Virus record (IMG/VR): IMGVR_UViG_3300030104_002385
Span: 28,750 to 92,749 of that record
From: a virus
DNA length: 64,000 nt
Reading direction: 5' to 3' (one strand)
A program made the translations under genes and the position numbers. Shown one piece after another: positions 2-28,906 of this stretch (the first letter of the stretch is position 1; every line of letters starts with the position of its first letter). The notes under the pieces are model-generated. The model saw only the letters and a list, made by a program, of their open reading frames with translations. It made no database searches and was not told the DNA's origin.

Positions 2-1228
2 GAATTGGATCTTGATAATAATTACATATACGTGACTGAATACGCTGGATCATTTGCTCTAGGTGACTTCATTGGTGATTATGGACTTGAATCAAATCCA
101 ATTGGTTACGCAACTGTAAGTACAAGGGTTGTGACACCTGGTGCTGCTGCAGCACAAGTACAAGATATTAGAGTTAGTGGTGTTAATAAGAGATTATATC
201 TTTCAGACATAGTTGGAACATTTGATCTTAAGGATGCAATTGTTGGACCTGAAAGTTACGAGTCAATCATATTGACTAAGGTTGATCTCAAGGCACGTGT
301 GAAGAGAGCATTTAAAGGATTTGATGGTACTACAACATCATTCAAGTTAACACAACAGAATGGTACTTCATACCTTCCAGATCCTGCTGGACACCTATTG
401 GTATTCGTTAATGGTATTCTGCAACCTCCAGGTGCTGCAAACGCATATACAGCGTTCTCAGACACTATACAGTTTACAGAAGCACCAGATCTAGGAGCAT
501 CATTTACAGGGTTCTACGTAGGTAAGTTGAGACAGTTGGATGATATATCCTTCGAGTTCGACTCCTTACGTCAGTCATTCAACCTTAAACGTAATGATGT
601 ATTCTACTCACTAACACTAACAGAAGGTGTTCAATCTTCTACCATACGTCCAGAAAACAATATTCTTGTTTCGCTTAACGGTGTTCTTCAGGAACCTGGA
701 ATTGGTTTTGAAATTGTTGGTTCTAGAATTATCTTCTCTGAAATTCCTCGTGTGGGATCGACATTCGTTGCCTTCTCCTACGTTGGTTCTGAGGCAGACG
801 TTGATGCTGCTGAGGTTGTACCTCCAGTCGAACCAGGTGACTTTATTGACATCCAAGGTGAGACAGACTCCAGAGAAGTTGCTGTTATTGAATCATCAAA
901 CTCCTTAATCACCTTCGACTATCTTGGATCAGTCTTTGGTAAGGATGCTCAAGGATCAGCAGCAATAACCCAAGGGTTCATAGATACAGTCCAAGTTACT
1001 GCTGGTGGATCTGGATATACTTCTAGACCAACAGTAAGAATTGACTCGATCTCTGGTTTTGAGGGTTCTATCAAGGCACTAGTTGGTGTCGGTGGTGTTG
1101 AAATAAGTAATCCTGGATCTGGATATGAAACTCCAGGTATCGCAGTTGAAACCTCAGTCCCTGACGATTGGACTGCTCCTGACTTAAGTGCTTATGGAGA
1201 AGAATTCGTCGATCCTGAAATAGGATAA
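2..1228 (+). CDS. C-terminal part of a giant baseplate/virion structural protein (gp7-like); 5'-truncated by the window edge
   Basis: Frame is open from position 2. Contains 'LLVFVNGILQPPG'/'ILVSLNGVLQEPG' and 'GGSGYT' repeats typical of cyanomyovirus baseplate proteins. Lies upstream of the gp9-like and gp8 genes. Confidence 0.6.
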   Translation, partial: ELDLDNNYIYVTEYAGSFALGDFIGDYGLESNPIGYATVSTRVVTPGAAAAQVQDIRVSGVNKRLYLSDIVGTFDLKDAIVGPESYESIILTKVDLKARVKRAFKGFDGTTTSFKLTQQNGTSYLPDPAGHLLVFVNGILQPPGAANAYTAFSDTIQFTEAPDLGASFTGFYVGKLRQLDDISFEFDSLRQSFNLKRNDVFYSLTLTEGVQSSTIRPENNILVSLNGVLQEPGIGFEIVGSRIIFSEIPRVGSTFVAFSYVGSEADVDAAEVVPPVEPGDFIDIQGETDSREVAVIESSNSLITFDYLGSVFGKDAQGSAAITQGFIDTVQVTAGGSGYTSRPTVRIDSISGFEGSIKALVGVGGVEISNPGSGYETPGIAVETSVPDDWTAPDLSAYGEEFVDPEIG

Positions 1229-1238
1229 TCAAACACTA

Positions 1239-1245
1239 ATAAATA
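1239..1245 (+). promoter_or_regulatory. T4-type late promoter (ATAAATA)
   Basis: ATAAATA in the intergenic gap about 20 nt before the ATG at 1265. Confidence 0.65.
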
Positions 1246-1264
1246 ACTAAAAAAGTAGCGAGTA

Positions 1265-2491
1265 ATGGCTAAACAATCTCTAGGTCTTGGTACTGCAGCA
1301 AACGACAATACAGGGGATACTCTGAGAGTTGGTGGTGACAAGATAAATGATAACTTTAATGAGATTTACAGTGCTATTGGTAACGGTACAACATTAACCC
1401 TCAGCGTTACTAACCCTGCTGTTGGTCAGGTGTTGCGTTATAATGGTTCTAGTTTTCTCCCGTCGGATTATTCCAATTTAACATCAGCTTTAGATGTTAA
1501 TGGAAATTCCATTATTTCTAGTACCAATGGCAATATAGTAATTGCTCCTAATGGGACTGGAGATGTAACAATATCTAATGGTGGTGTTACTAACACATTT
1601 GAAGGTAGTGATGGAACAATAGATTTACCAACAAAGGTAAAGTATAAGAATGAGTATGCTAGTGTTGGTGCAGCTCCTGCTGCAGCGACATACACGGGAT
1701 ATTTCTTTACTGTAGATGGTGATGACAATCCATATGTAAACATTAATATTACTGCTGGCGGTGCTGGTGATGTTAGGGCAAAGGTTGCAACAGAATATTC
1801 TAGTGTTGATCTTTTATCAGACGTTGATACTACAACGGCTGCTCCTACTAATAACCAAGTTTTGAAATGGGATTCTACTGCTAGTAAGTGGAAACCTGGA
1901 GATGATTCTGCTGGTATTTCTTCTATTAACCTTTGGTCATCTATTGTAGGTGATACTGGTACAACAACAGCAAATAGTCAGACAGACACATTAACTATTG
2001 CAGGTGGCACAAATATAACTACTGCAATTTCTGGAGATACTTGTACAATCAACTTCTCTGGAACTTTAACAACTACACTTGCTGCTTTAACAGATACTGA
2101 TACTTCTAGTGTAGTACAAGGTGATTCATTATTCTATAATGGAACTGGTTGGATTGTAACTAGAAGTCCAATTATATGGTGGGAAGTAAATGCAAGTGGT
2201 TCATCTGATTATACTATCAATGGACCTGGTTTTGCATCTCCTCAAAGTGATCCTACTTTGTATGTTCAAAGAGGATTTACTTATGCATTTGACAATACTA
2301 TACAATCTACTGCACATCCTTTTAGAATACAAAGTACTCAAGGATTGAGTGGTACTCCATATACAGATGGTCAATCTGGTAGTGGAACTGCGGTTCTTTA
2401 TTGGACTGTACCTATGAATGCTCCAAGCACACTTTACTATCAATGTACAATCCATGCTGCGATGCAAGGACAAATTAACGTTGTGAGTTAA
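1265..2491 (+). CDS. gp9: Baseplate wedge/tail-fibre connector (gp9/gp10-type N-terminus) with C-terminal cupredoxin-like domain
   Basis: N-terminal 'GTAANDNTGDTLRVGGDKINDNFNEIY' matches the T4 gp9/gp10 N-terminal motif; C-terminus has 'HPF...YYQCTIHAAM'. Confidence 0.7.
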   Translation: MAKQSLGLGTAANDNTGDTLRVGGDKINDNFNEIYSAIGNGTTLTLSVTNPAVGQVLRYNGSSFLPSDYSNLTSALDVNGNSIISSTNGNIVIAPNGTGDVTISNGGVTNTFEGSDGTIDLPTKVKYKNEYASVGAAPAAATYTGYFFTVDGDDNPYVNINITAGGAGDVRAKVATEYSSVDLLSDVDTTTAAPTNNQVLKWDSTASKWKPGDDSAGISSINLWSSIVGDTGTTTANSQTDTLTIAGGTNITTAISGDTCTINFSGTLTTTLAALTDTDTSSVVQGDSLFYNGTGWIVTRSPIIWWEVNASGSSDYTINGPGFASPQSDPTLYVQRGFTYAFDNTIQSTAHPFRIQSTQGLSGTPYTDGQSGSGTAVLYWTVPMNAPSTLYYQCTIHAAMQGQINVVS

Positions 2492-2494
2492 TAA

Positions 2495-5400
2495 ATGGCA
2501 AGAACTGTTTCTGGAAGTGGTGCTGTAATCGAACCAATTTTTGATGAAGTATTTGGTGTTCGTGCAGTCAAAGTAGTCAACGGAGGTACTGGATATACAT
2601 CAGCAGACCCTCCAAGGTTGACGGTGACGGGTTGTGGTACTCCGACTCAAGAAGCATTATTATATCCTATTATAGATCAGGATTCTGGTAGAATAATCCA
2701 TGTACGTGTTCTTAATAGAGGTAAGGGATACGATCCTTTAAGATTGGGAATTTATCCTCAAGCAGAAACTCCCAATGTAGTAGATTCATTTGATATTAAT
2801 AAGGTTTGGCAATCACATCCAAATTCCCCTACTACTGGTTTATTTGCTTTAAATACTGCTACACCACCACAAAAGACTGATAGATTAAGGATACAATCTG
2901 ATAACCATCCCAAACCCACTCCTACACAGGCTGAGAGGGTTCCTGGTGGTGGTCCTTTAGTTGATAGGGCATTTGATCAGACTTTCATTTATAGAGGTGG
3001 TAAAGACGTTCCTAATCCTGGTACTAGAGAAGCACAACCAGATAAGGTTACAGGTATTTTAGCGAATGGTGGTTTATTACATACTCCAGAATGGGGTCCA
3101 GATGGTAATCCATTTCCAGGATTTGCTCTTGATAGTGTAAAGAACAGTTACGTAAAGAATAATACAACATATGATGCTGTAGTTGAGAATAATATTAGTT
3201 ATTATCAATCAAGTAGAGTTCTTAATGAATTTGCACTTAAAAATGGTACTTTTGAATTTGGTAACTTAATCCAATTTACATGGTATGTCAAAGTAGAATT
3301 TGATAATATCATGTTAACAGTTACTAATATTGATGAATCTATAGGAACTATTGAAGTAGGAAGAACTGTTGATGTAATTAGTGGAAATGGTAGAGGTGAA
3401 GTTGCAAAAATTGTTAGAGATGGTAGTAATAATATTACTAGAATATATCTTAGACAAACAAGTGGAACTTTTAATGATCAAGATTTAGTTTTAGGATCAA
3501 CAGGATTTGGATTTAAAATTAATACAGTCCCTACATTATTACCCAACGGTATTTTTTATATCGATTTTGGTACAGATTCTGATGAATTTGGTCCATTTAT
3601 TTCAGGAACATATTACTTTGCACCACAAAATATTAAGGTTCAAAGAAATTATTTAATTATTTGGAACCAATCAGATAGCAGTAATGGTATAACTGGTACT
3701 CATACTCAAGGACACCCTATGCAGTTTAGCATAACTGCTGATGGTACATTAAATGGTGGTACTCTTTATTACAACAGCACTTCTTTAGATTATCCTGCTG
3801 CGGATTATGAGAATGAGTTCCAACCATTATTGATAATGAATGCTGATGAAAATACTAATCGCATTTATTATTTTTGTAAGCATCACAGATATATGTCTGG
3901 ATATGCTGGAGATGAGGGATATATTACGTTTGAGGCAGAGATCGATGACGACCCATTAGCTAATGATTATTACGTAACTGACTTTTTTGCAACTGGTCCT
4001 GATTATTCAAGACATGCTGATGGACATTCCAAGATTGTTGGTATGTCATTTGATGGATATCCTATTTACGGACCTTATGGATATACCTCTACTGGTACTG
4101 TTGCTAAAGAAGTATCTGGATTTAGATTTAAAACAACTGGGGAACTTGATGGTGGTAGACCAGAGGTAATTACAGCATCTACAGAAACATTTGTTGTAAC
4201 TGTTTCTAGTGGTAAGTTCTTATTTGGTGGTACTACTCCACCATTCTTAGATTTGAAGAGAGGGAAAACATATGTCTTCCAGCAAAATGATGCTAGTAAT
4301 GATAATGAAGCACTACTAATATCATCTACTGAAGATGGTTGGCATGCTGGTGTAGCAGGTACTGCATCGTACGTTTACACTACAGGAGTTAAGTATTACT
4401 TAGAAAGTGTAGAAAAAACATATACTGAATACTTAGCTGGATTTGATACAGCTACTGCAAGAGAATTAAGGTTTACAGTACCTTCAAATTCTATCACTGC
4501 ATTATATACATTTGCTGAAACAACGGCATCTGTTGGTGTAAGAACTGTTCAGGAAGGTTATATTCTTGGTGATGTAGTTCAGGATAATATTTGGGATAAT
4601 TCATCTACTTGGGATAGTGGTACTGCTTATGCTCAATATGCTACTGTAAGAAACTCATCTGGAATAATTTATGAAGCAACTGCTGCTATTAGTAGTGGTG
4701 GATCACAACCTGTACATACAAGTGGCACTACTAGTAATTGGAAATATGTGCAACCTGTTGGAACTTTAGATGAGCATAATGGTAAGTTTGGAGTAACTCC
4801 TGAGTATCCAAATGGAACGTATGCTTACTTTATGACAGAGGATGGTGCAGGTACTCCTGTTTTTCCTTATGTTATTGGTCCAAGATTTTACGGAGTTCCT
4901 TTATTTGAAGGCGATACACCTCCTGAAGCAAACAATGTATTCCCTGCTGGTGCAGAAGGTGAGGTTGTTTTAAGTACCGATAATCCAGGTACGATTGCTT
5001 ACGTTAAGATGACCCAAAAGGGTGATAACTATTTTGGTTCTGCAACTGCAAGAATTTTAGGTGGTACAGGAACAGGTGCTACAGGAAGTCCAACAGTTCA
5101 AACAATTACGGGTCTTTCACTACTTAGTGGTGGTAGGCAATATGCATCTCCCCCAACATTAATCTTTGAAGGTGGTGGTGGATCTGGTGCAGAAGGTGCT
5201 GCTGCGATTGATACTTTAGGTAAGGTTACTTCAATATCTGTTGTAGATAGTGGTGAATATTATCAAGAACCTCCTTACATTTTAATCAATGGTGGTGGAG
5301 GTTTAGGTGCAAAAGCAATTGCAACTATTTCTCAAGGTTCTATTAGTTCTATAACAGTTACTGATCAAGGTAAAGGATATACTTCTCAACCATCTGTTAT

Positions 5401-6880
5401 ATTCACAAAACTCGTTAATCTTAAACGTAAGACTAGAGCAAGACAGGCATATAACTCAGGTGCAAATTATCTTACTGGTCTTGTTAAGGATATGACTGCA
5501 TCGGATACAACAGTATTTGTTGATTCTACTGATGCATATCCTGGTTCTGGAAAACTTATTATTAATAAGGAAACTATATCATATACAAGTAAAGCAGCTG
5601 GTAAATTCTCTGGTATAACTAGAGGTGTTAATTTTAATTACGACCAGAGAGTTATACTTGATGCTGGACAGAACGCAGAAGATGGTAGTTCAAACTACAA
5701 ATTCAAGGTAGGTGACCGTGTTATTAGAAGAGTTGAAAATGCTGGTAACAAGATTGCTAAAGTATATGATTGGGATTCTTCTACTAGAGAGTTACTTGTT
5801 ACATTTGAAGTTGATGAATTAGCATTTATTGATGCTGGTATTCCATCTACAGAAGATGCTATTGTACAGTTTGATGGTGGTGTTGCTGATAGTGCTAATT
5901 CAGCATATCAACCACACACTATTCTTGATTTACAAAATAGTGTAATAACAACTTTAACAGTACCTATTTCGACTTTACAGGATAAAGCATTCCAAGATAT
6001 TTTGCCTACATCAATAGGTGATGGTATTCCTGACTTAGTAAATACATCAACAGATTATGAAAATCAGATACAATTAGATGGTGGTATCTTTAGTTCACTT
6101 TACGGTATTGAAGAAACATTGGGTGGTCAGAATACAACTTTATTCCAAGTTGGAGATAGTATTAAAGATGGTGATATACCATTTAAGTATGCGACTATAT
6201 CAACTGCAGGTGGATTGAGTGATGGTGTAGAACATACTGCACTTACTACATTATATCTTGATAACGCCACTGGTAATGGTGGTAGTTATAACGTTAATGA
6301 AATTGTTACTGGTTCTATATCTGGAGTTCAAGGAACAGTTGTTTCTTGGGATACTACAAATCAAATATTGGTTCTTAAAGCAGTAACACCATTTAACACT
6401 GGTAATATAAATGTTGGAGTTAATGGTTTACTTTATGAGTTCTCTCACAATTCCAGTATAATTGATTTTATCATTCAAAATCCAGGAACTAACTATAGTG
6501 CAATTCCGCTTTTAGAAATACAAGGACTATTATCACCTACAAGTGAAACCAGAAATGCGGAAACGATAAACTGGGGTGGTCCTATGGGTGATATACAGGC
6601 AACTGGTACTGCAGTAATGACGATTGCAGGAGACCAAGTTGCATCAATCAATATAACTAATGGTGGTTATGGATATAAGAAAACTATAGATAGTCAGTAT
6701 TATGATCATCCATATGTTTTATTTACGGATAGTTCTAATAATATACTAGATGGTAAATTTAATAGCACTTCAAGCGGTGCTATAGCACAGGCAGTATTGG
6801 GTGGAGAACTCTGCACAGGTACTGGTGGTGCTTCTTATAGAATTAAAAGAATTGAGTATCAAACACAGGTTCGTGCGTAA
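2495..6880 (+). CDS. Large baseplate-region virion protein with YHYH-like domain, cupredoxin-like and CBM-like inserts
   Basis: 'GHSKIVGMSFDGYPIYGPYGY ... LDEHNG...TPEYPNGTYAYF...FPY' YHYH-type motifs; Gly-rich beta repeats; lies between gp9-like and gp8. Confidence 0.65.
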   Translation: MARTVSGSGAVIEPIFDEVFGVRAVKVVNGGTGYTSADPPRLTVTGCGTPTQEALLYPIIDQDSGRIIHVRVLNRGKGYDPLRLGIYPQAETPNVVDSFDINKVWQSHPNSPTTGLFALNTATPPQKTDRLRIQSDNHPKPTPTQAERVPGGGPLVDRAFDQTFIYRGGKDVPNPGTREAQPDKVTGILANGGLLHTPEWGPDGNPFPGFALDSVKNSYVKNNTTYDAVVENNISYYQSSRVLNEFALKNGTFEFGNLIQFTWYVKVEFDNIMLTVTNIDESIGTIEVGRTVDVISGNGRGEVAKIVRDGSNNITRIYLRQTSGTFNDQDLVLGSTGFGFKINTVPTLLPNGIFYIDFGTDSDEFGPFISGTYYFAPQNIKVQRNYLIIWNQSDSSNGITGTHTQGHPMQFSITADGTLNGGTLYYNSTSLDYPAADYENEFQPLLIMNADENTNRIYYFCKHHRYMSGYAGDEGYITFEAEIDDDPLANDYYVTDFFATGPDYSRHADGHSKIVGMSFDGYPIYGPYGYTSTGTVAKEVSGFRFKTTGELDGGRPEVITASTETFVVTVSSGKFLFGGTTPPFLDLKRGKTYVFQQNDASNDNEALLISSTEDGWHAGVAGTASYVYTTGVKYYLESVEKTYTEYLAGFDTATARELRFTVPSNSITALYTFAETTASVGVRTVQEGYILGDVVQDNIWDNSSTWDSGTAYAQYATVRNSSGIIYEATAAISSGGSQPVHTSGTTSNWKYVQPVGTLDEHNGKFGVTPEYPNGTYAYFMTEDGAGTPVFPYVIGPRFYGVPLFEGDTPPEANNVFPAGAEGEVVLSTDNPGTIAYVKMTQKGDNYFGSATARILGGTGTGATGSPTVQTITGLSLLSGGRQYASPPTLIFEGGGGSGAEGAAAIDTLGKVTSISVVDSGEYYQEPPYILINGGGGLGAKAIATISQGSISSITVTDQGKGYTSQPSVIFTKLVNLKRKTRARQAYNSGANYLTGLVKDMTASDTTVFVDSTDAYPGSGKLIINKETISYTSKAAGKFSGITRGVNFNYDQRVILDAGQNAEDGSSNYKFKVGDRVIRRVENAGNKIAKVYDWDSSTRELLVTFEVDELAFIDAGIPSTEDAIVQFDGGVADSANSAYQPHTILDLQNSVITTLTVPISTLQDKAFQDILPTSIGDGIPDLVNTSTDYENQIQLDGGIFSSLYGIEETLGGQNTTLFQVGDSIKDGDIPFKYATISTAGGLSDGVEHTALTTLYLDNATGNGGSYNVNEIVTGSISGVQGTVVSWDTTNQILVLKAVTPFNTGNINVGVNGLLYEFSHNSSIIDFIIQNPGTNYSAIPLLEIQGLLSPTSETRNAETINWGGPMGDIQATGTAVMTIAGDQVASINITNGGYGYKKTIDSQYYDHPYVLFTDSSNNILDGKFNSTSSGAIAQAVLGGELCTGTGGASYRIKRIEYQTQVRA

Positions 6881-6917: not shown

Positions 6918-8450
6918 ATGGCAGCTCTATTAACTGATCAATTTAGGATTTTTTCAGCAAAAAAATTCATTAAGGCACTTGAAGGTCCAGATGCGACTCA
7001 ATCCGATACGGCAGCTGGTGCCAATCGTGATAGGGTATATCTGTTCATTGGAAGACCACAATCGTGGGATAACGAAAACTCTCCACCGCAAGCGGTAGAT
7101 TCATTTTCGGAATTCTCTGGATCATATGATGATATGATCTCTCTGAAAAGAGTACTTGCTGCTGATACCGTACAGGTTGTTCGTAGGATTGACTGGGTTT
7201 CCCCAGAACAAACTACTGGTGGATTAGGTTTCACCTATGACATGTATCGTCATGATTATTCACCAACTAAAACTGCTGCATCTGGTGCTACTAAACTGTA
7301 TGATTCTGACTTTTACGTTGTAAACTCTCAGTATCAAGTATATAAGTGCATCTATAACGGAACGTCTCCTAGCGATCCTAACGGAAAACCCTCGACTGTT
7401 GAACCTACTGGTACATCTACTTCAATCATTACTACTGGTGATGGTTATAGATGGAAGTACATGTATACTATTCCTGTTGCATCTGTTCTTAAGTTCTTCT
7501 CGAACGATTATATGCCAGTTTTCACTAACGCTGCAGTGAAAACTAATGCTGTTGAAGGTGAAATTGATACAGTAGTTATTACTGCTGCAGGTACAGGTTA
7601 TAATAATGGAACGTATGATAACGTTTCTATCAACGGTGATGGTACTGGTGGTCGTCTTAGCGTTGTTATAGACGGAGGTAAGATTATTTCTGCTACTGTT
7701 ACTAGTGGTGGTACTGGTTATACTTTTGCTAAAATATCTGTTGATAATATTACAGGTATTGGTACTGGTACTGGTGGGCAGGTTGATGTTATCATTCCAC
7801 CTCCTGGTGGTCATGGAAGTGATGCAGTGGTTGAAATTGGTGCTTTCAGAACCATGATTAACGCCAAACTATCATATGATGAAGGTGCTGGAGATTTCCC
7901 AGTTGATAACGACTACAGAAGAATTGGTTTAATTACCAATCCTCTTAAGTTTGGTACAACTGAGTTGATATCAGACCTTACAGTTTCTGCTACTAAAGCA
8001 GTTATATTCTCTCCTACATTCCAAGGTAATTATGTCCCAGATGAAATTATCACTCAAACTAGAGTTGTTGGTGGTGCAAACGTCACTGCTCGTGCGAGAG
8101 TTATATCCTGGAACTCGACTACTAAACTATTAAAGTACTATCAAAATGCTGTTGATGGGATTTTCCCAGAAGTTACTGGTACACAAAACGAGTTTGATGG
8201 TTCCAACCCTATAAGTGGTGCAACTTCAGGTGCAGCTGGGCAACCAGATGTAAACTTCCCTGCAGTTCCAAACTCATCTTCTAGAACTATTAATAACACC
8301 GAATATGACCTCGGTATGAGATTTAATAACGGTTACGCAAAACCAGAGATTAAGTCAAATAGCGGTCAGGTTGTTTACATAGATAATAGAAGATCAATCA
8401 GTCGTGCAAACGACCAAGTAGAAGATATTAAAATCGTAATAGAATTCTAA
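6918..8450 (+). CDS. gp8: Baseplate wedge subunit gp8
   Basis: 'YLFIGRPQSW', 'VYKCIYN', 'DGYRWKYMYTIP' and C-terminal 'YIDNR...DQVEDIKIVIEF' motifs. Confidence 0.9.
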   Translation: MAALLTDQFRIFSAKKFIKALEGPDATQSDTAAGANRDRVYLFIGRPQSWDNENSPPQAVDSFSEFSGSYDDMISLKRVLAADTVQVVRRIDWVSPEQTTGGLGFTYDMYRHDYSPTKTAASGATKLYDSDFYVVNSQYQVYKCIYNGTSPSDPNGKPSTVEPTGTSTSIITTGDGYRWKYMYTIPVASVLKFFSNDYMPVFTNAAVKTNAVEGEIDTVVITAAGTGYNNGTYDNVSINGDGTGGRLSVVIDGGKIISATVTSGGTGYTFAKISVDNITGIGTGTGGQVDVIIPPPGGHGSDAVVEIGAFRTMINAKLSYDEGAGDFPVDNDYRRIGLITNPLKFGTTELISDLTVSATKAVIFSPTFQGNYVPDEIITQTRVVGGANVTARARVISWNSTTKLLKYYQNAVDGIFPEVTGTQNEFDGSNPISGATSGAAGQPDVNFPAVPNSSSRTINNTEYDLGMRFNNGYAKPEIKSNSGQVVYIDNRRSISRANDQVEDIKIVIEF

Positions 8451-16212: not shown

Positions 16213-19200
16213 ATGGCAAATAGAATACAGTTAAGACGAGGTGGTGCTCAGGAATGGGCAAACTCAAACCCTACATTGGCACAAGGTGAATTAGGGATAG
16301 AATTAGACACAGGCCGATTTAAACTTGGCGATGGTGTTTCAGCATGGAACTCTTTGAGATACGAGAGACCAGTTGAATCAACATCTAATACAGCAAATAC
16401 GTTAGTACAGAGAGACGCAGACGGCAATTTTTCTGCTGGTACTATAACGTCAACTCTAATTGGTAACGCTTCAACTGCTACACGTCTTGCTTCAACTAGA
16501 CAAATTCAACTCTCTGGGGATGTACAATCATCTGGTGTATTCGATGGTTCTGCAAACCTAACATTAAACTCAGCATTAGGTTTAGTATCAACACTACCTC
16601 ATTATGATGGTACTGCAACACCTACAGGTACATATACAAAACTTACTGTAGATGCAAAGGGTAGAATTACTAATGCTACAAACCCAACAACTCTTGCTGA
16701 TTACAATCTTAATGGAACCGTAGAAGGTTCATCTGCACAACCATATGATTTAGACCTTGTTGCTGTTGCAGGTCTTACTAGTACTGGTTTAATATCTAGA
16801 ACTAGTACTGGTACTATGGCAACCAGAGCAATTGCTGGTACTGCCACAAGAATTGCTATTACAGATGGTAGTGGTCTTTCTGGAAACCCAACAATTGATC
16901 TTATAACAACTGCTGTTACTGGTGCTGCTTATAACACAGCATCTCTAACATCTATTGCTGGATCACAAACTGTTAATACTACAGCATATACAGTTGATGA
17001 TTACGGTAGACTAACAGCATCAGTAGCACTTCCTATTGCAACTGCTGTAGAGGGAACAGATGCACTTGCATATGCTGCAGGTACTACATATGTTCGTGAT
17101 GATAAAATTACTAATGCATCAAAACTTTATCAAGCAATAGCAGGTATTGCTGCTGGTGCTGGTGCTCCAACTCATTCAGATGCTACTGATGCTGGATCTT
17201 GGAGATATCTTGGTGCAGTTACAACTAAACAAAAAGGATTAGCGTCATTCGCACAGGAAGATTTTGACGTATCTGCAGCAGGTCATGTCACTATTTCTGC
17301 TAATGGGGTTGATAATACTCAACTACAAAATAGACGTATCGGTTTTGCTGATGGAAATACTGTAGAGAATTTTGAATTAGATCAGGAACTCACAGCAACA
17401 TCTGGTTATAGAGGTTTTAATTATTTAAATTATATAAAGGTCAATGACACTTCAGGTAATCTTCTGTTTGGTGCTAATAACACTGGCGATAGTAGTGCTG
17501 GTGAGATCGATGTCAATGTAAGATCATACTTTAGTGATCCAGATATTACTTTGGATGGTGCTGTTGCACAAACTTTAGACAAGACTGGAGATGGTAATCT
17601 AACATTCCAGACTACACAGAACTCAACATCCGCTAGAACATTAAGTATTTTAGCAACTAATGCTGGCACTGGTGCTAGTGGTGTTGTAGTAACTGCAGAA
17701 AATACAGTTACTATCACTGCATCAGACGCTGCTGGTAAAGTTCAAATAGAAGACATATATCTTCAAGGAGATTATATCGCTTCCTCTGCTGCTACTATGA
17801 TCTTGGATCCTGGTGATGACAGAGCGACTAGTGGTAAAGTTCAGATAATGGGGGATTTACAAGTTGATGGAACGACTACGACAGTTAATTCAACCGTTAC
17901 TACGTTGGATGATCCTATTATCACTCTTGGCGGTGATACTGCTCCAGGTTCAGATGACGGTAAGGATAGAGGAGTTGAATTCAGATATTACGACACACAA
18001 GCAAGAGTTGGATTCTTTGGTTACGACGATTCGGCCGCTGATCTTGGAGGCCATTCAGGAGCGTTCTCATTCGTCTACGATGCCACAAATACCGCAGAGG
18101 TATTCGCTGGAACAGATGCAGGGATCATCGCTGGTAACTTAAAATTAACAACTAATACTAACTCAACCTCAAATACTACTGGAGATTTAGTAGTAGCAGG
18201 TGGTGTTGGTATTGGAGATGATGTTAATATTGGTGGTACTTTAGATGTTGATACTAACTTCAGAACTCATGGTACATCTAGGTTTGATGATGAAGTAGTT
18301 ATTCAAGGTGCATCTAAAGACTTCATAATGAAGAACGGAAGTGGTACTGCAAAATTTACAGCAGGATCTACAACTGGTAACCTTACTATGGCAGGTGTTC
18401 TTGCCGTCACAGGTAATGTAGATGTTAATAGTAATAAGTTTAATATAACAGCAGCATCTGGTAATACTGCTATTGCTGGTACTCTAACGGTATCAGATGA
18501 GACTATAGTTAAGGCAGACAATAAAACCTTTAAAGTTCAAACTGCTGCTGGAGTAGATAAGTTTGTTGTTGATACAGATAACGGTAATCTAGATTCTGCA
18601 GGTGGTGCAAATATTGCAGGACTTGTTTATCTTGAAAGTACAGATGAACCTGATATCTTATCTGGTGCTCCACATACAATTCAGAATGCCGACTACGGTG
18701 CATTACGAGTAGATGGTGGTGGATACTTTGATAAGAACGTTCTCTTTAATGGTGACATCTTCCTGAATGGTGACTTTAACCAGCAAGAAGACGCAACTGA
18801 GAACTACGGTTTAAGGAACTATCTATCCATCAGATACAAGATGCGAGCAGGTTCTGTTGCTGCATATACTCCAAGTTATTCAAACCATAACACTTCTAAC
18901 TTAAGAGTTTTTGGTGGTGCTGGTATTAACACAACACTACACGTTGGTGGAACTGGTGCTAGTCAAGGTTTATTTGTAGGTAAAAAGAACTCTGGAGATA
19001 CAGTTAAGTTTAGTGTTCTAGGTGCTTCAGGAGATATCACATCTGAAGGTACACTAACACAGAATGGTAATGCTGAGTTTAATGGAACTGTAGATGTCGA
19101 TGGTAACTTTGCTGTTCGTAATAGTACAACAGATAAGTTTACTGTTGCTTCTTCTACTGGTAATGCAGTTGGTGAAGGAGATCTAAACATTAAAGGTGCA

Positions 19201-22200
19201 GTTGATTTTGATACTACACTTAATGTTGATGGTGCTACAACTATCCAAGATGATCTTATCGTCAAGTCTGACAATAAGACGTTCAAGGTTCAGAATGCAT
19301 CTGCTGCAGATAAGTTTACTATTGATACTGATAATGGTAATACAGAGACACAAGGTACATTAACAGTACAAGGTCAAACAAACATCATTGACTCTCTTGT
19401 AATTAATGCAGCGAATGAAAATTTATATATTCAGAATGGTTCTGCTGTTACTAAATTCTCAGTTGATACTGATAACGGTAACACTAACATTATTGGTACT
19501 CTTACCGTTGGTGATGCTACACAGATTAATGACACCTTCGGTGTTTCTGGTGTAGTAACAGCAACAAATAACACAGAGCAAACACTTACTGGTTCATATG
19601 CTGCTGATGGTTCTGTAAGACTTTCTGGTGGTGTTGGATTAGCAAAGAACTTAGCAGTTGGTGGAGACGCAAGAGTATACGGTACTTTAGAAGTAACACA
19701 GACTGTAGATATTAATGACGCTGTTGATGTATCAGGTAATTTAGTTGTAAGTAATACACAAGAAGCAACATCTCTTGCAGATGCTTCTGTTGCTCTACAA
19801 GTTGCTGGTGGTGCAACGATTGATAAGAACACCTACATTGGTGGAAACCTTGTAGTCTATGATGCTGGTAATACTCGTGCTGCATTTACAGTAACTAACA
19901 GTTCAGGTGATGGTGAGTTCCACAATGACCTTACAATTGGAGGTAACTTAATAGTCAATGGATCAACAACTACTGTCAATAGCACGGTCACAACTCTCGA
20001 TGACCCTATTATTACTTTGGGTGGTGACACAGCACCATCGTCTAATGATGCTAAGGATCGTGGTGTTGAATTCCGTTACTATGACGGCTCTGCTAAAATT
20101 GGGTTCTTCGGATTTGATAGATCCACACAAGAATTTGCATTCCTAACAAGTGCAACTAATACTTCAGAGGTTCTAGCAGGTACAGATGGTCCATTAAGAG
20201 TTGGATCTATTAATGTAACTGGTGCTGGTACTTCAGTTGATATTGATAATAATTTAAATGTAGATGGTACAGCAACAGTTGATGGTCAAATAATTTCTCA
20301 ACTTGCTCAAGGTACTGCTCCATTTGTAATTGCATCTACAACTAAAGTTAATAACCTTAACGCAGATCTACTAGATGGCATGACAACTGCTACTGCTAAT
20401 ACAGTATCTACAGTTGTTAATAGAGATGCATCTGGAAACTTTGCTGCAGGAACAATTACTGCTGCCCTAACAGGTAATGCAGATACTTCTACTGAAGCAA
20501 CAAATGTAACTGTTAGTGCTAACAATACTGCTAATGAAACTGTATATTTAACATTCGTTGATGGTGCCACTGGCACTCAAGGAGTTGAAACTGATACAGG
20601 ACTTAATTACAATCCAAGTACAGGAATTCTAACTACTACCCAAGTAACTGGTAATGTAGTTGGAGATGTAACTGGAGATCTTACAGGTACTGCTGATGTT
20701 GCAACTACAATTACTCTTGCTGACGAATCTACTGACACTTCATGTAACGTTCTATTCGCAACAGCAGCAACTGGCAATCTTGCAGCGAAGACTGGTACTA
20801 ACCTCACGTTCAATTCCAACACTGGTATTTTAACTGCTACTGGATTTAGTGGTCCTATTACTGGTGAAGTTACAGGTAATGCTGCTACTGCTACAGTCCT
20901 CGCTACAGCGAGAAATATTGGTGGGGTATCATTCAATGGTTCTGCTGATATAACCCTTCCAGGCGTTAATTCAAGCGGTAATCAGGACACCTCTGGTAAT
21001 GCTGCTACTGCTACTGCTCTTGCAACAGCAAGAAACATTGGTGGAGTATCATTTGATGGTACTGCTGCAATTAACCTTCCAGGCGTTAATACAGCAGGTA
21101 ATCAGGACACCTCTGGAAATGCTGCAACTTCTACTCAGGCAGCAAACCTAACCAATCATAATACTGGTGGTCTATCAGAAGGAACTAACCTCTATTATAC
21201 AGAAGCAAGAGTACAAGCAAAACTAGATAATGCTTATTCTCAGTTGAAGTCTATGCTCAATAACCTTGCAACTTCAACTACATTGACTATGAATTTATCT
21301 GGAGACCCAACACCAGGTGTCGTTGTTACTCTCGGATCAATTACTGCTAATGGTATTGGTGGATTTTCGAGTGCTTCAAACGTTGCTACATCAGGTGGAA
21401 CAGGATCTTCATTAACAGTTGATACTACAGTTAACGCTGCTGGTGCTATAACTGGAATAGCATTGAATACTGCTGGTACAGACTATCTTGTATCTGATAC
21501 TTTGACAATCACTAACCCAAATCTGGGTGGTGTTTCTGCTCTTAACGTTGGTACTTTAAGTGCTGGTACTGGATATGCTACAGGAACTACTATCGCAACA
21601 ACTTCGTCTGGATCTGGTAGTGCATGTACAGTTGATATTACTGGTGTTAGTGGCACTGGTGCCATCACTGGTATATCAATCAATGCAAATGGTTCTGGTT
21701 ATGCAATCGGTGAAACACTAACAATCGCCAATGCTAATGCCACTGGTGCTAAGACCCTCGGTTCTATCGCTACTGCTGGTACAGGTTATGCTGCTGGATC
21801 TGCTATTGCTACTTCTGCTTCTGGATCTGGATCTTCTGCAACTGTTGACATTACAGTTGATGGATCTGGTGCTGTAACAGGTGTCACAATTAATGATGAT
21901 GGTACTGGATATGCAGCATCTGAAGTATTGACAATTACTAACGCTAATGCATCTGGTGTTAAAACACTCGGATCTATTAGTGTTGCTGGTACTGGATATA
22001 CTACAGCATCTGGAGTTGCTACAACTTCATCTGGTTCAGGAACTGGATTGACAGTTGATGTAACAGTATCTTCAGGTGGTCTTGCAACTCTAACAATTAA
22101 TAATGATGGTTCTGGATATGCTGCATCAGACACTATTACAGTTGTTAATGCTAACGCATCTGGAGTTAAAACTCTTGGAACTATCTCTGCTGCTGGTACT

Positions 22201-22719
22201 GGATATACTGAAGGAAGTGCTACTGGTGTTTCAACAACAGCAAGTGGATCAGGTACTGGTCTGACGGTAGATATTGTTGTTGATGCATCTGGTAACGTTA
22301 CTAGTGTTGCAATTAATAATGATGGTTCTGGATACGCAGCATCTGAAGTTATCACAATTGCAGGTGAAGGTGATGGTAATGCTACTATCCCAGTCTCTGC
22401 TATTCATGGAAATGGAGGAACATCATCTGTTTCTGCTATTCATGGTAACGGTGCAACGATCCCTGTATCAGCAATACATGGTAATGGTGCATCGATTAAT
22501 ACTTCTACAGTATTCACCAATGCTACATTCGCTCTATCTGACATCACAACGATGGAAGTTGGTGCAACTGTAACAGGTGGAACCTCTGGTACAACTGGTG
22601 TTATTACTGCTCTTGGTACTAATGCAATTACAGTTAATACCGTTGACGGATTCTTCAAAGTCGGAGAAACCGTTGGTGCTAATGATGTTACTAACTTGAC
22701 GATCTCCTCATTCGCTTAA
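16213..22719 (+). CDS. Long tail-fibre-like protein with Mtd-type N-terminal domain and multiple internal repeats
   Basis: 'RIQLRRG..EW..NPTLAQGELGIELDTGRFKLGDG' (Mtd_N-like); Gly/Thr/Ala-rich fibre repeats; 2168 aa. Confidence 0.8.
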   Translation: MANRIQLRRGGAQEWANSNPTLAQGELGIELDTGRFKLGDGVSAWNSLRYERPVESTSNTANTLVQRDADGNFSAGTITSTLIGNASTATRLASTRQIQLSGDVQSSGVFDGSANLTLNSALGLVSTLPHYDGTATPTGTYTKLTVDAKGRITNATNPTTLADYNLNGTVEGSSAQPYDLDLVAVAGLTSTGLISRTSTGTMATRAIAGTATRIAITDGSGLSGNPTIDLITTAVTGAAYNTASLTSIAGSQTVNTTAYTVDDYGRLTASVALPIATAVEGTDALAYAAGTTYVRDDKITNASKLYQAIAGIAAGAGAPTHSDATDAGSWRYLGAVTTKQKGLASFAQEDFDVSAAGHVTISANGVDNTQLQNRRIGFADGNTVENFELDQELTATSGYRGFNYLNYIKVNDTSGNLLFGANNTGDSSAGEIDVNVRSYFSDPDITLDGAVAQTLDKTGDGNLTFQTTQNSTSARTLSILATNAGTGASGVVVTAENTVTITASDAAGKVQIEDIYLQGDYIASSAATMILDPGDDRATSGKVQIMGDLQVDGTTTTVNSTVTTLDDPIITLGGDTAPGSDDGKDRGVEFRYYDTQARVGFFGYDDSAADLGGHSGAFSFVYDATNTAEVFAGTDAGIIAGNLKLTTNTNSTSNTTGDLVVAGGVGIGDDVNIGGTLDVDTNFRTHGTSRFDDEVVIQGASKDFIMKNGSGTAKFTAGSTTGNLTMAGVLAVTGNVDVNSNKFNITAASGNTAIAGTLTVSDETIVKADNKTFKVQTAAGVDKFVVDTDNGNLDSAGGANIAGLVYLESTDEPDILSGAPHTIQNADYGALRVDGGGYFDKNVLFNGDIFLNGDFNQQEDATENYGLRNYLSIRYKMRAGSVAAYTPSYSNHNTSNLRVFGGAGINTTLHVGGTGASQGLFVGKKNSGDTVKFSVLGASGDITSEGTLTQNGNAEFNGTVDVDGNFAVRNSTTDKFTVASSTGNAVGEGDLNIKGAVDFDTTLNVDGATTIQDDLIVKSDNKTFKVQNASAADKFTIDTDNGNTETQGTLTVQGQTNIIDSLVINAANENLYIQNGSAVTKFSVDTDNGNTNIIGTLTVGDATQINDTFGVSGVVTATNNTEQTLTGSYAADGSVRLSGGVGLAKNLAVGGDARVYGTLEVTQTVDINDAVDVSGNLVVSNTQEATSLADASVALQVAGGATIDKNTYIGGNLVVYDAGNTRAAFTVTNSSGDGEFHNDLTIGGNLIVNGSTTTVNSTVTTLDDPIITLGGDTAPSSNDAKDRGVEFRYYDGSAKIGFFGFDRSTQEFAFLTSATNTSEVLAGTDGPLRVGSINVTGAGTSVDIDNNLNVDGTATVDGQIISQLAQGTAPFVIASTTKVNNLNADLLDGMTTATANTVSTVVNRDASGNFAAGTITAALTGNADTSTEATNVTVSANNTANETVYLTFVDGATGTQGVETDTGLNYNPSTGILTTTQVTGNVVGDVTGDLTGTADVATTITLADESTDTSCNVLFATAATGNLAAKTGTNLTFNSNTGILTATGFSGPITGEVTGNAATATVLATARNIGGVSFNGSADITLPGVNSSGNQDTSGNAATATALATARNIGGVSFDGTAAINLPGVNTAGNQDTSGNAATSTQAANLTNHNTGGLSEGTNLYYTEARVQAKLDNAYSQLKSMLNNLATSTTLTMNLSGDPTPGVVVTLGSITANGIGGFSSASNVATSGGTGSSLTVDTTVNAAGAITGIALNTAGTDYLVSDTLTITNPNLGGVSALNVGTLSAGTGYATGTTIATTSSGSGSACTVDITGVSGTGAITGISINANGSGYAIGETLTIANANATGAKTLGSIATAGTGYAAGSAIATSASGSGSSATVDITVDGSGAVTGVTINDDGTGYAASEVLTITNANASGVKTLGSISVAGTGYTTASGVATTSSGSGTGLTVDVTVSSGGLATLTINNDGSGYAASDTITVVNANASGVKTLGTISAAGTGYTEGSATGVSTTASGSGTGLTVDIVVDASGNVTSVAINNDGSGYAASEVITIAGEGDGNATIPVSAIHGNGGTSSVSAIHGNGATIPVSAIHGNGASINTSTVFTNATFALSDITTMEVGATVTGGTSGTTGVITALGTNAITVNTVDGFFKVGETVGANDVTNLTISSFA
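17866..20120 (+). repeat. Dispersed internal duplication in the fibre gene (copies at ~17866-18020 and ~19955-20120)
   Basis: 'G.TTTVNSTVTTLDDPIITLGGDTAP.S.D.KDRGVEFRYYD..A..GFFG.D' occurs twice. Confidence 0.85.
20875..21129 (+). repeat. Tandem 120-bp (40-aa) fibre repeat, about 2 copies
   Basis: 'GNAATAT.LATARNIGGVSF.G.A.I.LPGVN..GNQDTS' repeated with an exact 120-nt period. Confidence 0.9.
21316..22551 (+). repeat. Five ~70-aa repeats followed by five short closing segments (three are 36-bp 'VSAIHGNG' tandem repeats)
   Basis: Repeats begin at ~21316, 21523, 21739, 21949 and 22156; 36-nt units at 22381, 22417 and 22453. Confidence 0.85.
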
Positions 22720-23538: not shown

Positions 23539-24465
23539 ATGGCATATTCAAATTCACCAGCACAGGATTACGTTCAGTCTGACTATAGTAATTCTTCACG
23601 TTTGAACGTTAATGGGTCTGCTCAAGAGCAGAAGTTTATAGAAAATCTAATTGTAGAAACAATTGAAATTTACGGGCAAAATATTTACTACGTGCCGAGA
23701 ACTATTGTCAACCGTGATAGTGTCTTCGGAGAGGATTCTGATGGCAAATTTGAAAGTGCCAAAGCGATTCGTGCCTATGTCAATAATGTTGAAGGATGGG
23801 AAGGACAAGGCGAACTTCTTACGAAGTTTGGGATCCGCATCGAGGATAAGACAACATTTGTATTCTCCCGTGAAAAATTTAAAGAAAAGGTTGATGACAG
23901 CACTGTCCTCAATGTCGAAGGAAGACCCAACGAAGGGGATTTAATTTGGTTCCCTATAACTAAACATTTATTTGAAATTAAGTTTGTAGAAGTCGAACGT
24001 CCTTTCTATCAGTTAGGTAAGAATTACGTTTGGGAATGTCAGTGCGAACTCTTTGAGTACAGTGATGAGGAGATTGACACTGGTCTTACAGAACTTGATG
24101 CTATTGAGACTGCCTTTGCTAATGCAATTACAGTTGGTCTTGCTGCTGGTGGTTCTGGAGACTTCACTGTTGGTGAGACTGTTACTGGAGGTAGTTCTAA
24201 TGTAACTGCTGAAGTTAAGTCTTGGGATTCTAGTACTAGAACACTTATTGTTATTAACCGTTCTGGTACATTTACTATACCAGAAACATTGACAGGTGGT
24301 ACATCTAGTGCATCTTGGACTACTGCTACATATAATACAATAGACAATAAAAATACAACGTACGATCAGAACTACGAATTTGAAACTGCTGATAATGATA
24401 TCATAGACTTCAGTGAAGCAAACCCATTCGGATCAGTTGGATCATCCACTGACTTAACAATCTAA
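23539..24465 (+). CDS. gp14: Neck protein gp14
   Basis: 'IEIYGQNIYYVPR', 'RPNEGDLIWFP', 'PFYQLG', 'IDFSEANPFG'. Confidence 0.92.
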   Translation: MAYSNSPAQDYVQSDYSNSSRLNVNGSAQEQKFIENLIVETIEIYGQNIYYVPRTIVNRDSVFGEDSDGKFESAKAIRAYVNNVEGWEGQGELLTKFGIRIEDKTTFVFSREKFKEKVDDSTVLNVEGRPNEGDLIWFPITKHLFEIKFVEVERPFYQLGKNYVWECQCELFEYSDEEIDTGLTELDAIETAFANAITVGLAAGGSGDFTVGETVTGGSSNVTAEVKSWDSSTRTLIVINRSGTFTIPETLTGGTSSASWTTATYNTIDNKNTTYDQNYEFETADNDIIDFSEANPFGSVGSSTDLTI

Positions 24466-28581: not shown

Positions 28582-28906
28582 AAAGTTAACTAAGGAGGAG
28601 ATAGGTTACAAAACTACCGATAAAATTCGTCAGATGTGGCTCCTTAATCCCCATGATCATCACATGTTATATGTGAGAGATGATGGGACTTTTTATGGGT
28701 TTACTCACATGAAAGGGGAGGATCCAGAGGAATGGTTTTGGGAAGCACATGGTATACAGACTGAGTTATTTCCACCTGAACCACCTAAGTCTAATCCACC
28801 GACAGAAGAGCAGATTGCTCGTGCCCCACATCTCAATATGTTAGAGAAATACTATGGTAAGGGTTGGAAACCTGAACCAGTTGAAGGGTTGGGAGATCAC
28901 TTCTAA
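28574..28906 (+). CDS. Hypothetical protein
   Basis: GTG start overlapping the upstream gene end; coupled to the next ORF (TAATG). Confidence 0.6.
   Translation: MIKKLTKEEIGYKTTDKIRQMWLLNPHDHHMLYVRDDGTFYGFTHMKGEDPEEWFWEAHGIQTELFPPEPPKSNPPTEEQIARAPHLNMLEKYYGKGWKPEPVEGLGDHF

Follow-up and report, generated by a model that had tools for sequence, protein, structure and literature searches.

A putative self-nested array of five small beta-barrels at the C-terminus of a cyanophage fibre protein

How the C-terminal end of a phage fibre protein folds is the question raised by one stretch of viral DNA, 64,000 nucleotides long (IMG/VR record IMGVR_UViG_3300030104_002385, positions 28,750 to 92,749) and referred to throughout as the window. 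The open reading frame (ORF) at 16213..22719 encodes a virion fibre or structural protein of a T4-like cyanophage, in which a series of long repeats is followed by a series of short segments. These could be two unrelated arrays or parts of a single fold. The reading favoured here, with a probability of roughly 0.8, is that the last 470 residues form five small beta-barrels nested one inside the next, each of them closed by a short strand that returns to it from further along the chain. The finding is confined to the final 1.44 kb of the ORF.

Anatomy and repeat counts of the C-terminal block

When the translation is cut at its recurring motifs, the C-terminal block resolves into five long repeats (R1–R5; 21313–22380; 69–73 aa each), five short segments, here called closers (c1–c5; 22381–22551), and an end module of 55 aa. 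R1 to R4 terminate in T(I/V)xNxN and R5 terminates in the turn AGEGDGN. Each of the five repeats aligns to one and the same hidden Markov model (HMM), with scores of 90–104 bits. An earlier note on this DNA had described five repeats of ~70 aa with these endings, followed by exactly five short segments; the description holds over 21313–22551, although the repeat boundaries used here lie about three codons from those of the note. Closers c1 and c3 encode an identical peptide with a DNA identity of only 75%, and the DNA of R3–R5 is 66–71% identical among copies. This divergence indicates old copies held by selection, and not a recent duplication or an artefact of assembly.

In the proposed arrangement each long repeat would supply five strands of a six-stranded barrel, the next barrel being inserted into the loop that leads to the sixth strand. 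Once the innermost barrel (R5 plus c1) is complete, the chain would return, adding the sixth strands in reverse order, so that c2 would close R4, c3 would close R3, c4 would close R2 and, finally, c5 would close R1. A quite different account is that the repeats are tandem domains strung like beads, followed by an unrelated short tandem repeat, with the equality of the two counts a coincidence. Tandem Repeats Finder does report the 36-bp closer array as a plain tandem repeat, as this account would have it.

The two accounts differ in what is to be found among homologues. A set of 120 homologous proteins and 80 viral loci gave 106 distinct C-terminal blocks, in which an HMM of the five copies in the window served to count long repeats and a position matrix to count closers. 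Automatic counts were equal in 103 of the 106; two of the three mismatches arose from divergent closers that had escaped detection (P0003 and L067) and were added by eye. The number of long repeats thus equals the number of closers in 105 of the 106 blocks (r = 0.998). The shared number, N, ranges from 1 to 8, with one block at N = 1, one at N = 2, 22 at N = 3, 23 at N = 4, 27 at N = 5, 24 at N = 6, one at N = 7 and six at N = 8, and the closer array lengthens by 11.7 aa for each added repeat. In 10,000 shuffles there were never more than 39 matching counts, and the pattern is therefore not due to chance. On a tree built from 400 upstream residues and the end module, each count changes at least 24 times, although recombination could inflate this figure; the rule is therefore not a single inherited accident. 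One-to-one covariation of the two counts had been predicted in the earlier note, and the homologues bear it out. Changes in lockstep on this scale, together with the mirror-placed insertions and deletions (indels) and the structure model described below, in which R2 and c4 fall within one barrel, make a bead-like array with a chance equality highly improbable. Ordinary tandem domain repeats whose number varies independently were also considered and rejected, the repeats being tied one to one to the closers.

Some related proteins lie outside this set. L068 encodes a further N = 1 protein, omitted from the 106 blocks since its end module starts with MQVG. A protein of 1818 aa, found at L061:1256-6709, L062:637-6090 and L063:1256-6709, has 9–10 matches to the long-repeat HMM (10–66 bits), and a script search found no ME(V/I)G motif after its last repeat; this protein may hold a further array of the barrel, nested or in tandem. 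Several eight-level loci also carry an ORF of 388 aa about 0.8 kb downstream of the fibre gene, with one weak copy of the repeat at 21–28 bits (L013:5184-6347, L014:3091-4254, L028:3470-4633 and L033:5464-6627).

Order of pairing and structural models

Equal counts do not of themselves say which closer belongs to which repeat, and three features of the homologues bear on the order. The first is the distribution of types. At every N from 2 to 8 the two leading repeat types and the two final closer types are found, and over the same range the R1 type and the DITT-type last closer (c5) are always kept. The number of 'KTLG'-type repeats equals the number of 'HGNG'-type closers, and a divergent third repeat is present exactly when the '...IATIF.N' closer is third from the end.

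The second feature is the placing of indels. In a MAFFT alignment of 45 C-termini, made without the nesting hypothesis, indels stand at mirror positions: more than 20 rows have both an additional 68–70 aa after R2 and an additional 11 aa after c3. R5 is lost jointly with c1, and R3, R4 and R5 are lost jointly with c1, c2 and c3.

The third is covariation, measured as mutual information between repeat and closer columns against a null in which closers were shuffled within each protein. With sequences thinned to 90% identity, the excess over the shuffles was 13.4 standard deviations (sd) for the mirror order (repeat n with closer 6-n in this window) and 1.6 sd for the parallel order. The innermost pair is contiguous and trivially linked, and was left out of a second test; here the mirror order reached a summed mutual information of 68.5 and the parallel order 44.0, where the null gave 35.2 +/- 3.2 (maximum 47.4). 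A parallel order of pairing is rejected on these values. The covarying sites join residues of the closer with the first strand of the repeat. Proline-free closers (TS, SS, TT, LT) also go with Asp or Asn, mostly as 'SD', in the last strand of the repeat in 15 of 18 cases, R4 and c2 of the window being among the 15.

An AlphaFold2 (AF2) monomer model of residues 1648–2168, made with the 45-row alignment described above, has a mean predicted local distance difference test (pLDDT) score of 82. The score exceeds 90 over model residues 60–465, which comprise all the repeats and closers, and all five closers are beta-strands in the model, at a pLDDT of ~90. When R5 plus c1 was modelled alone (84 aa, 38-row alignment; pLDDT 88.6), it gave five strands and the closer strand.

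The models were compared with 48,161 solved chains by a VIA-align structure search, and strand pairing was inferred from the residue ranges of the resulting alignments, not from contacts in the model. The top rows for the whole model were the T4 sheath protein gp18 (3fo8_D, 3foa_A) and the related sheath of a Klebsiella phage. The alignment of gp18 residues 99–186 comprises 73 residues, distributed over 128..452 of the model (Z 5.2, root-mean-square deviation (rmsd) 2.9, 22% identity). This alignment starts at R2 and ends in c4; its range is therefore R2 plus c4, a pair of n with 6-n. The barrels of translation factors align over the same range. For R5 plus c1 alone the best match was again gp18, with residues 98–191 over model residues 2–84 (Z 4.3, rmsd 3.9, 79 aligned). 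Sequence identity in these matches is 22–23%, and in both searches the Z scores, 4.3–5.2, are below the level advised for trust. We take the matches to suggest that the predicted unit is a single compact barrel of which the closer is a part, and not as proof of kinship with gp18. In the model, then, R2 and c4 would be the two parts of one domain, interrupted by another domain and resumed after the insert. From the single HMM, the equal counts and the mirror covariation and indels it follows that the inserted domain is of the same family as its host, at two levels or more.

Elsewhere the same barrel appears unsplit. A copy of the family is found in the gp8-like baseplate protein of the window, where residues 221–273 match residues 7–62 of R5 as a BLASTP pair with 38% identity (E 4e-6). 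In this copy a Gly-rich loop leads directly into the last strand; the split in the fibre copies falls at the same point. When the repeat HMMs were run against all other ORFs of the window, there were weak matches alone, in the gp8-like and gp9-like proteins. Among the predicted viral structures of BFVD, many fibre, baseplate and tail proteins of cyanophages match the unit, with template modelling (TM) scores of 0.7–0.88. Foldseek searches of the PDB with the whole model and with the single unit returned no match at E <= 0.001, and a comparison by hhalign of the unit profile with this phage's own sheath protein gave a probability of 0.1, that is, no relation.

These results bear on two further accounts of the return leg. 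It might be an external strap, with the repeats folding as complete domains and the closers running back along them outside the fold, one 12-aa step per domain. A strap would likewise give equal counts, and ~11.7 aa per step suits an extended one. The gp18 barrel, however, needs the closer as its last strand, both in the single unit (98–191, through model residue 84) and on R2 plus c4 (99–186); the unsplit gp8 copy has its final strand in the same place; and closer residues covary with the first strand of the repeat. An external strap is accordingly regarded as quite improbable.

Alternatively, the chain might run out and back as proposed, with the closers completing the barrels of a neighbouring chain in a trimer. 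Exchange of strands within trimers is common in phage fibres, the helix ahead of the nest resembles a coiled coil, and the count rule and mirror order would fit such a swap equally well. The monomer model, by contrast, closes every barrel in cis with a pLDDT above 90, and in monomeric contexts, among them the gp8 insertion, the same barrel has no split; exchange between chains is thus considered improbable.

Several points weigh against nesting within a single chain, the reading preferred here. Only R2–c4 and R5–c1 are tied to the model, by fold matches that are weak (Z 4.3–5.2); the pairs R1–c5, R3–c3 and R4–c2 are based on mirror-order covariation, mirror-placed indels and topology. The end module (pLDDT ~40) and the entry linker are poorly modelled, and the model is of a monomer whereas fibres are usually trimers. 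Position-specific descent, with positions counted from the junction, could contribute to the mirror covariation. Finally, one homologue is unequal: P0036 has four repeats and three closers in a C-terminal block of 379 aa. Its front resembles an N = 4 relative (P0032), and everything from the last repeat through the end module is the same as in an N = 3 relative (P0071). Either recombination by a single crossover produced this gene, or the contig is chimeric.

The earlier note had proposed that each domain is inserted into a loop of the previous one, with its last strand contributed on the return leg, and had expected a predicted structure to pair repeat n with closer 6-n. The insertion is supported by the counts, the mirror indels, the covariation and the confident AF2 model. 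The expected pairing is seen where it could be read from the models, R2 and c4 being spanned by the gp18 barrel and R5 plus c1 folding as a barrel.

The predicted arm, its flanks and the fibre gene

As the insertion is made before the sixth strand, neighbouring barrels of the nest would be joined by two crossings of the chain. This would give a rod or arm stiffer than beads on a string, whose far end would be the hairpin turn of R5, while the 55-aa end module would lie back at the base, beside the helix ahead of the nest. Conservation is lowest in R5 (majority fraction 0.67). Among relatives the innermost barrel is of two very different types, each found at several depths: one is R5-like, with a G-rich turn, and the other is a ~90-aa type that starts with I(K/N)TVGN... 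and ends in ...DAQLGGGG (loci for innermost-barrel types include L005:3386-3655 and L011:3602-3871). The low conservation and the two types fit an exposed far end.

A working protein of this kind needs equal numbers of repeats and closers, and a change of depth would therefore need two matched changes at DNA sites that are not adjacent. Recombination that replaces the contiguous inner cassette would be an alternative route.

At the base of the nest, the preceding helix has many invariant columns in the homologue alignment and may form a coiled-coil neck. On the other flank, the earlier note had regarded 'TLTMNLSGDPT' and 'MEVGATVTGG' as two halves of a module also present in gp14, and this part of it was not upheld. 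The gp14 homologue of the window (23539-24462) has a small module, 'FTVGETVTGG...', at residues 210–249. BLASTP of gp14 against c4–c5 plus the end module gave no alignment, and the end-module profile matches residues 210–249 weakly (independent E-value 0.0035), with a match that begins at the module's own start. Nothing therefore shows the nest splitting a gp14-type module; it lies where the helix meets a complete end module. A three-copy complex prediction for the end module (58 aa) scored 0.00 against a mark of 0.42, with the partner fold uncertain, and is no evidence either way.

The fibre gene lies between baseplate genes and the neck genes gp13 and gp14. Baseplate wedge genes and a gene for a 2390-aa protein are upstream of it, and downstream are gp13-, gp14- and gp15-like genes, the terminase and the sheath (Table 1).

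Table 1. Features of the fibre gene and of its gp8-like relative, in positions of the window; barrel levels and closing partners are those predicted for the nested arrangement.
Feature	Position	Strand	Remarks
Unsplit copy of the same barrel family in gp8-like baseplate protein	7578..7736	+	BLASTP
Whole fibre gene	16213..22719	+	2168 aa; virion fibre or structural protein, T4-like cyanophage
Long helix preceding the nest	21193..21267	+	aa 1661-1685; AF2 helix at model residues 14-38, pLDDT 54-69
Entry linker 'TLTMNLSGDPT' into outermost barrel	21280..21312	+	Conserved; pLDDT <50 at model residues 36-51
R1, first five strands of level-1 (outermost) barrel, closed by c5	21313..21531	+	
R2, first five strands of level-2 barrel, closed by c4	21532..21747	+	gp18 alignment
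R3, level-3 barrel, 'KTLG' type, closed by c3	21748..21957	+	'SEV' last strand with 'TIPV' closer
R4, level-4 barrel, closed by c2	21958..22164	+	'SDT' last strand with proline-free closer 'GTSSV', as in homologues
R5, level-5 (innermost) barrel, ending in hairpin turn AGEGDGN	22165..22380	+	
c1, closing (sixth) strand of R5, 12 aa, ...VSAIHGNG	22381..22416	+	Strand 73-79 in single-unit model
c2, closing strand of R4, 12 aa, ...VSAIHGNG	22417..22452	+	Strand 423-429, pLDDT ~90; covariation
c3, closing strand of R3, 12 aa, ...VSAIHGNG	22453..22488	+	Strand 434-441, pLDDT ~90
c4, closing strand of R2, 11 aa	22489..22521	+	Holds the end of the gp18 domain I alignment (model residue 452)
c5, closing strand of R1, 10 aa	22522..22551	+	Strand 457-465
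Conserved 55-aa C-terminal module	22552..22716	+	25/58 columns invariant; AF2 pLDDT ~40

The cyanomyovirus structural family phrog_697 matches the fibre (E = 0) over residues 1–1534 and the C-terminus, and Pfam Mtd_N matches residues 5–43; a Pfam scan of the C-terminal 479 aa gave nothing above threshold. By tblastn, relatives are found in 243 phage records, every one of a Synechococcus or Prochlorococcus phage, where they are annotated as fibre or as 'YadA domain-containing structural protein'. ORF_108 of phage S-TIM4 is 52% identical to the fibre at 100% coverage. From the profile match and the gene position, the product is assigned as the phrog_697 cyanomyovirus structural or fibre protein, orthologous to S-TIM4 ORF108, a protein that has been found in virions by mass spectrometry and that acquired mutations in 12 evolved populations (PMC6224464).

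By analogy with decoration domains, the nest may be a surface-exposed arm whose length can be adjusted and which makes contact with the host surface. The earlier note had placed the block at the tail-fibre tip and had suggested that it could tune receptor reach, two points that find no support here. The evolution experiment with S-TIM4 counts against a role in host contact, as none of the 45 mutations recorded in ORF108 while the phage adapted to new hosts lies in the nest; all of them are upstream of it, at gene positions 59–5019, and the nest starts near 5500 (PMC6224464). Host-specific amino-acid changes cluster in the first ~225 residues (gene positions 59–670; PMC6224464, Supplementary Table 2). 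The mutation map gives the nest no support as a site of host adaptation, and it does not bear on changes of depth. The host-specific changes lie near the Mtd_N domain, which raises the question of which end of the fibre meets the host.

Just upstream of the nest, at 20875-21135 of the window, there is a 120-bp tandem repeat (2.2 copies, 85% matches) that encodes 40-aa repeats. In S-TIM4, a stretch of 120 bp in ORF108, a little upstream of the nest, acquired 15 synonymous changes, attributed by the authors to recombination with an identical sequence nearby (PMC6224464). The two regions may be equivalent.

Published parallels and significance

Literature searches on the fibres of cyanophages and of phages in general yielded no published nested insertion of this build. 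Two systems in print come nearest: Si3, an insertion in RNA polymerase, and the contractile sheaths with their 'Russian doll' domains. Si3, in the beta' subunit (RpoC2) of the cyanobacterial enzyme, consists of recursively inserted sandwich-barrel hybrid motifs (SBHM), with 4 of its 8 hybrid-motif domains assembled from distant segments of the chain (PMC10895346). A 2026 survey of 2.7 million classified domains describes it as a six-level nest, its example of complex nesting (PMC13114784). In Si3, as in the fibre nest, a family of small beta domains is inserted into its own copies, several domains are assembled from distant parts of the chain, and the whole makes a long projecting arm. Si3, however, is branched and irregular (four continuous and four split domains) and sits in the trigger loop of an enzyme, whereas the fibre nest belongs to a virion fibre and would be strictly linear, always split before the last strand. 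Its depth also varies from 1 to 8 among close relatives, unlike that of Si3. Likeness between the SBHM fold and the fibre unit is limited to Foldseek rows at E about 1 to RNA polymerase beta' (8gzh_Z, 2auk_A and 6n57_J; E 1 to 4, non-significant); there is no RNA polymerase beta' or SBHM row among the VIA-align rows listed.

Contractile sheath proteins (T4 gp18, PDB 3FO8/3FOA, and diffocin CD1363) have been described as having a 'Russian doll' domain organisation (PMC6088184). They resemble the fibre nest in having domains inserted in one another within a phage tail protein, and the outermost inserted domain of gp18 (residues 98–191, domain I) is the best structural match to one unit of the nest. 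The sheath domains differ from the nest in being of different folds, with at most 3–4 levels and a fixed depth; the nest has one fold and a variable depth. Other cyanophage virion barrels, in the BFVD models and the gp8 homologue, share the barrel fold and G-x-G-Y motifs with the fibre unit. In the gp8 homologue the barrel is a single unsplit insertion, whereas in the fibre it would be nested in itself five deep.

A bolder extension of the nested reading is that the array is a rod of adjustable length, with the barrel nested up to eight deep, whose depth is under diversifying selection for host contact. Mismatched intermediates, of which P0036 may be one, would be short-lived and rescued by slippage in the 36-bp closer array, and the protein would fold only from the inside out. 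This extension is held tentatively and, taken as a whole, is rather doubtful. If the rod reading is true, its levels, up to eight, would make it deeper and more regular than the six-level case of RNA polymerase, and if inside-out folding is true, it would be a natural model for the folding of deep nests.

For annotation, regions of this kind should not be labelled as plain tandem repeats, and the C-terminus of the chain should not be equated with the far end of the structure. The natural variants, with one to eight levels and at least 24 changes of depth, form a ready series for the study of how a split domain folds and in which order, and the fibre nest offers a case of two distant DNA segments kept in step. 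It could also serve to test whether a double link between barrels yields a stiff rod of defined length, with a use in host contact or in protein design. In the fibre nest a domain appears to be inserted into its own copies with unusual regularity, and a virus of cyanobacteria would thus follow the same building rule as the Si3 insertion of cyanobacterial RNA polymerase.

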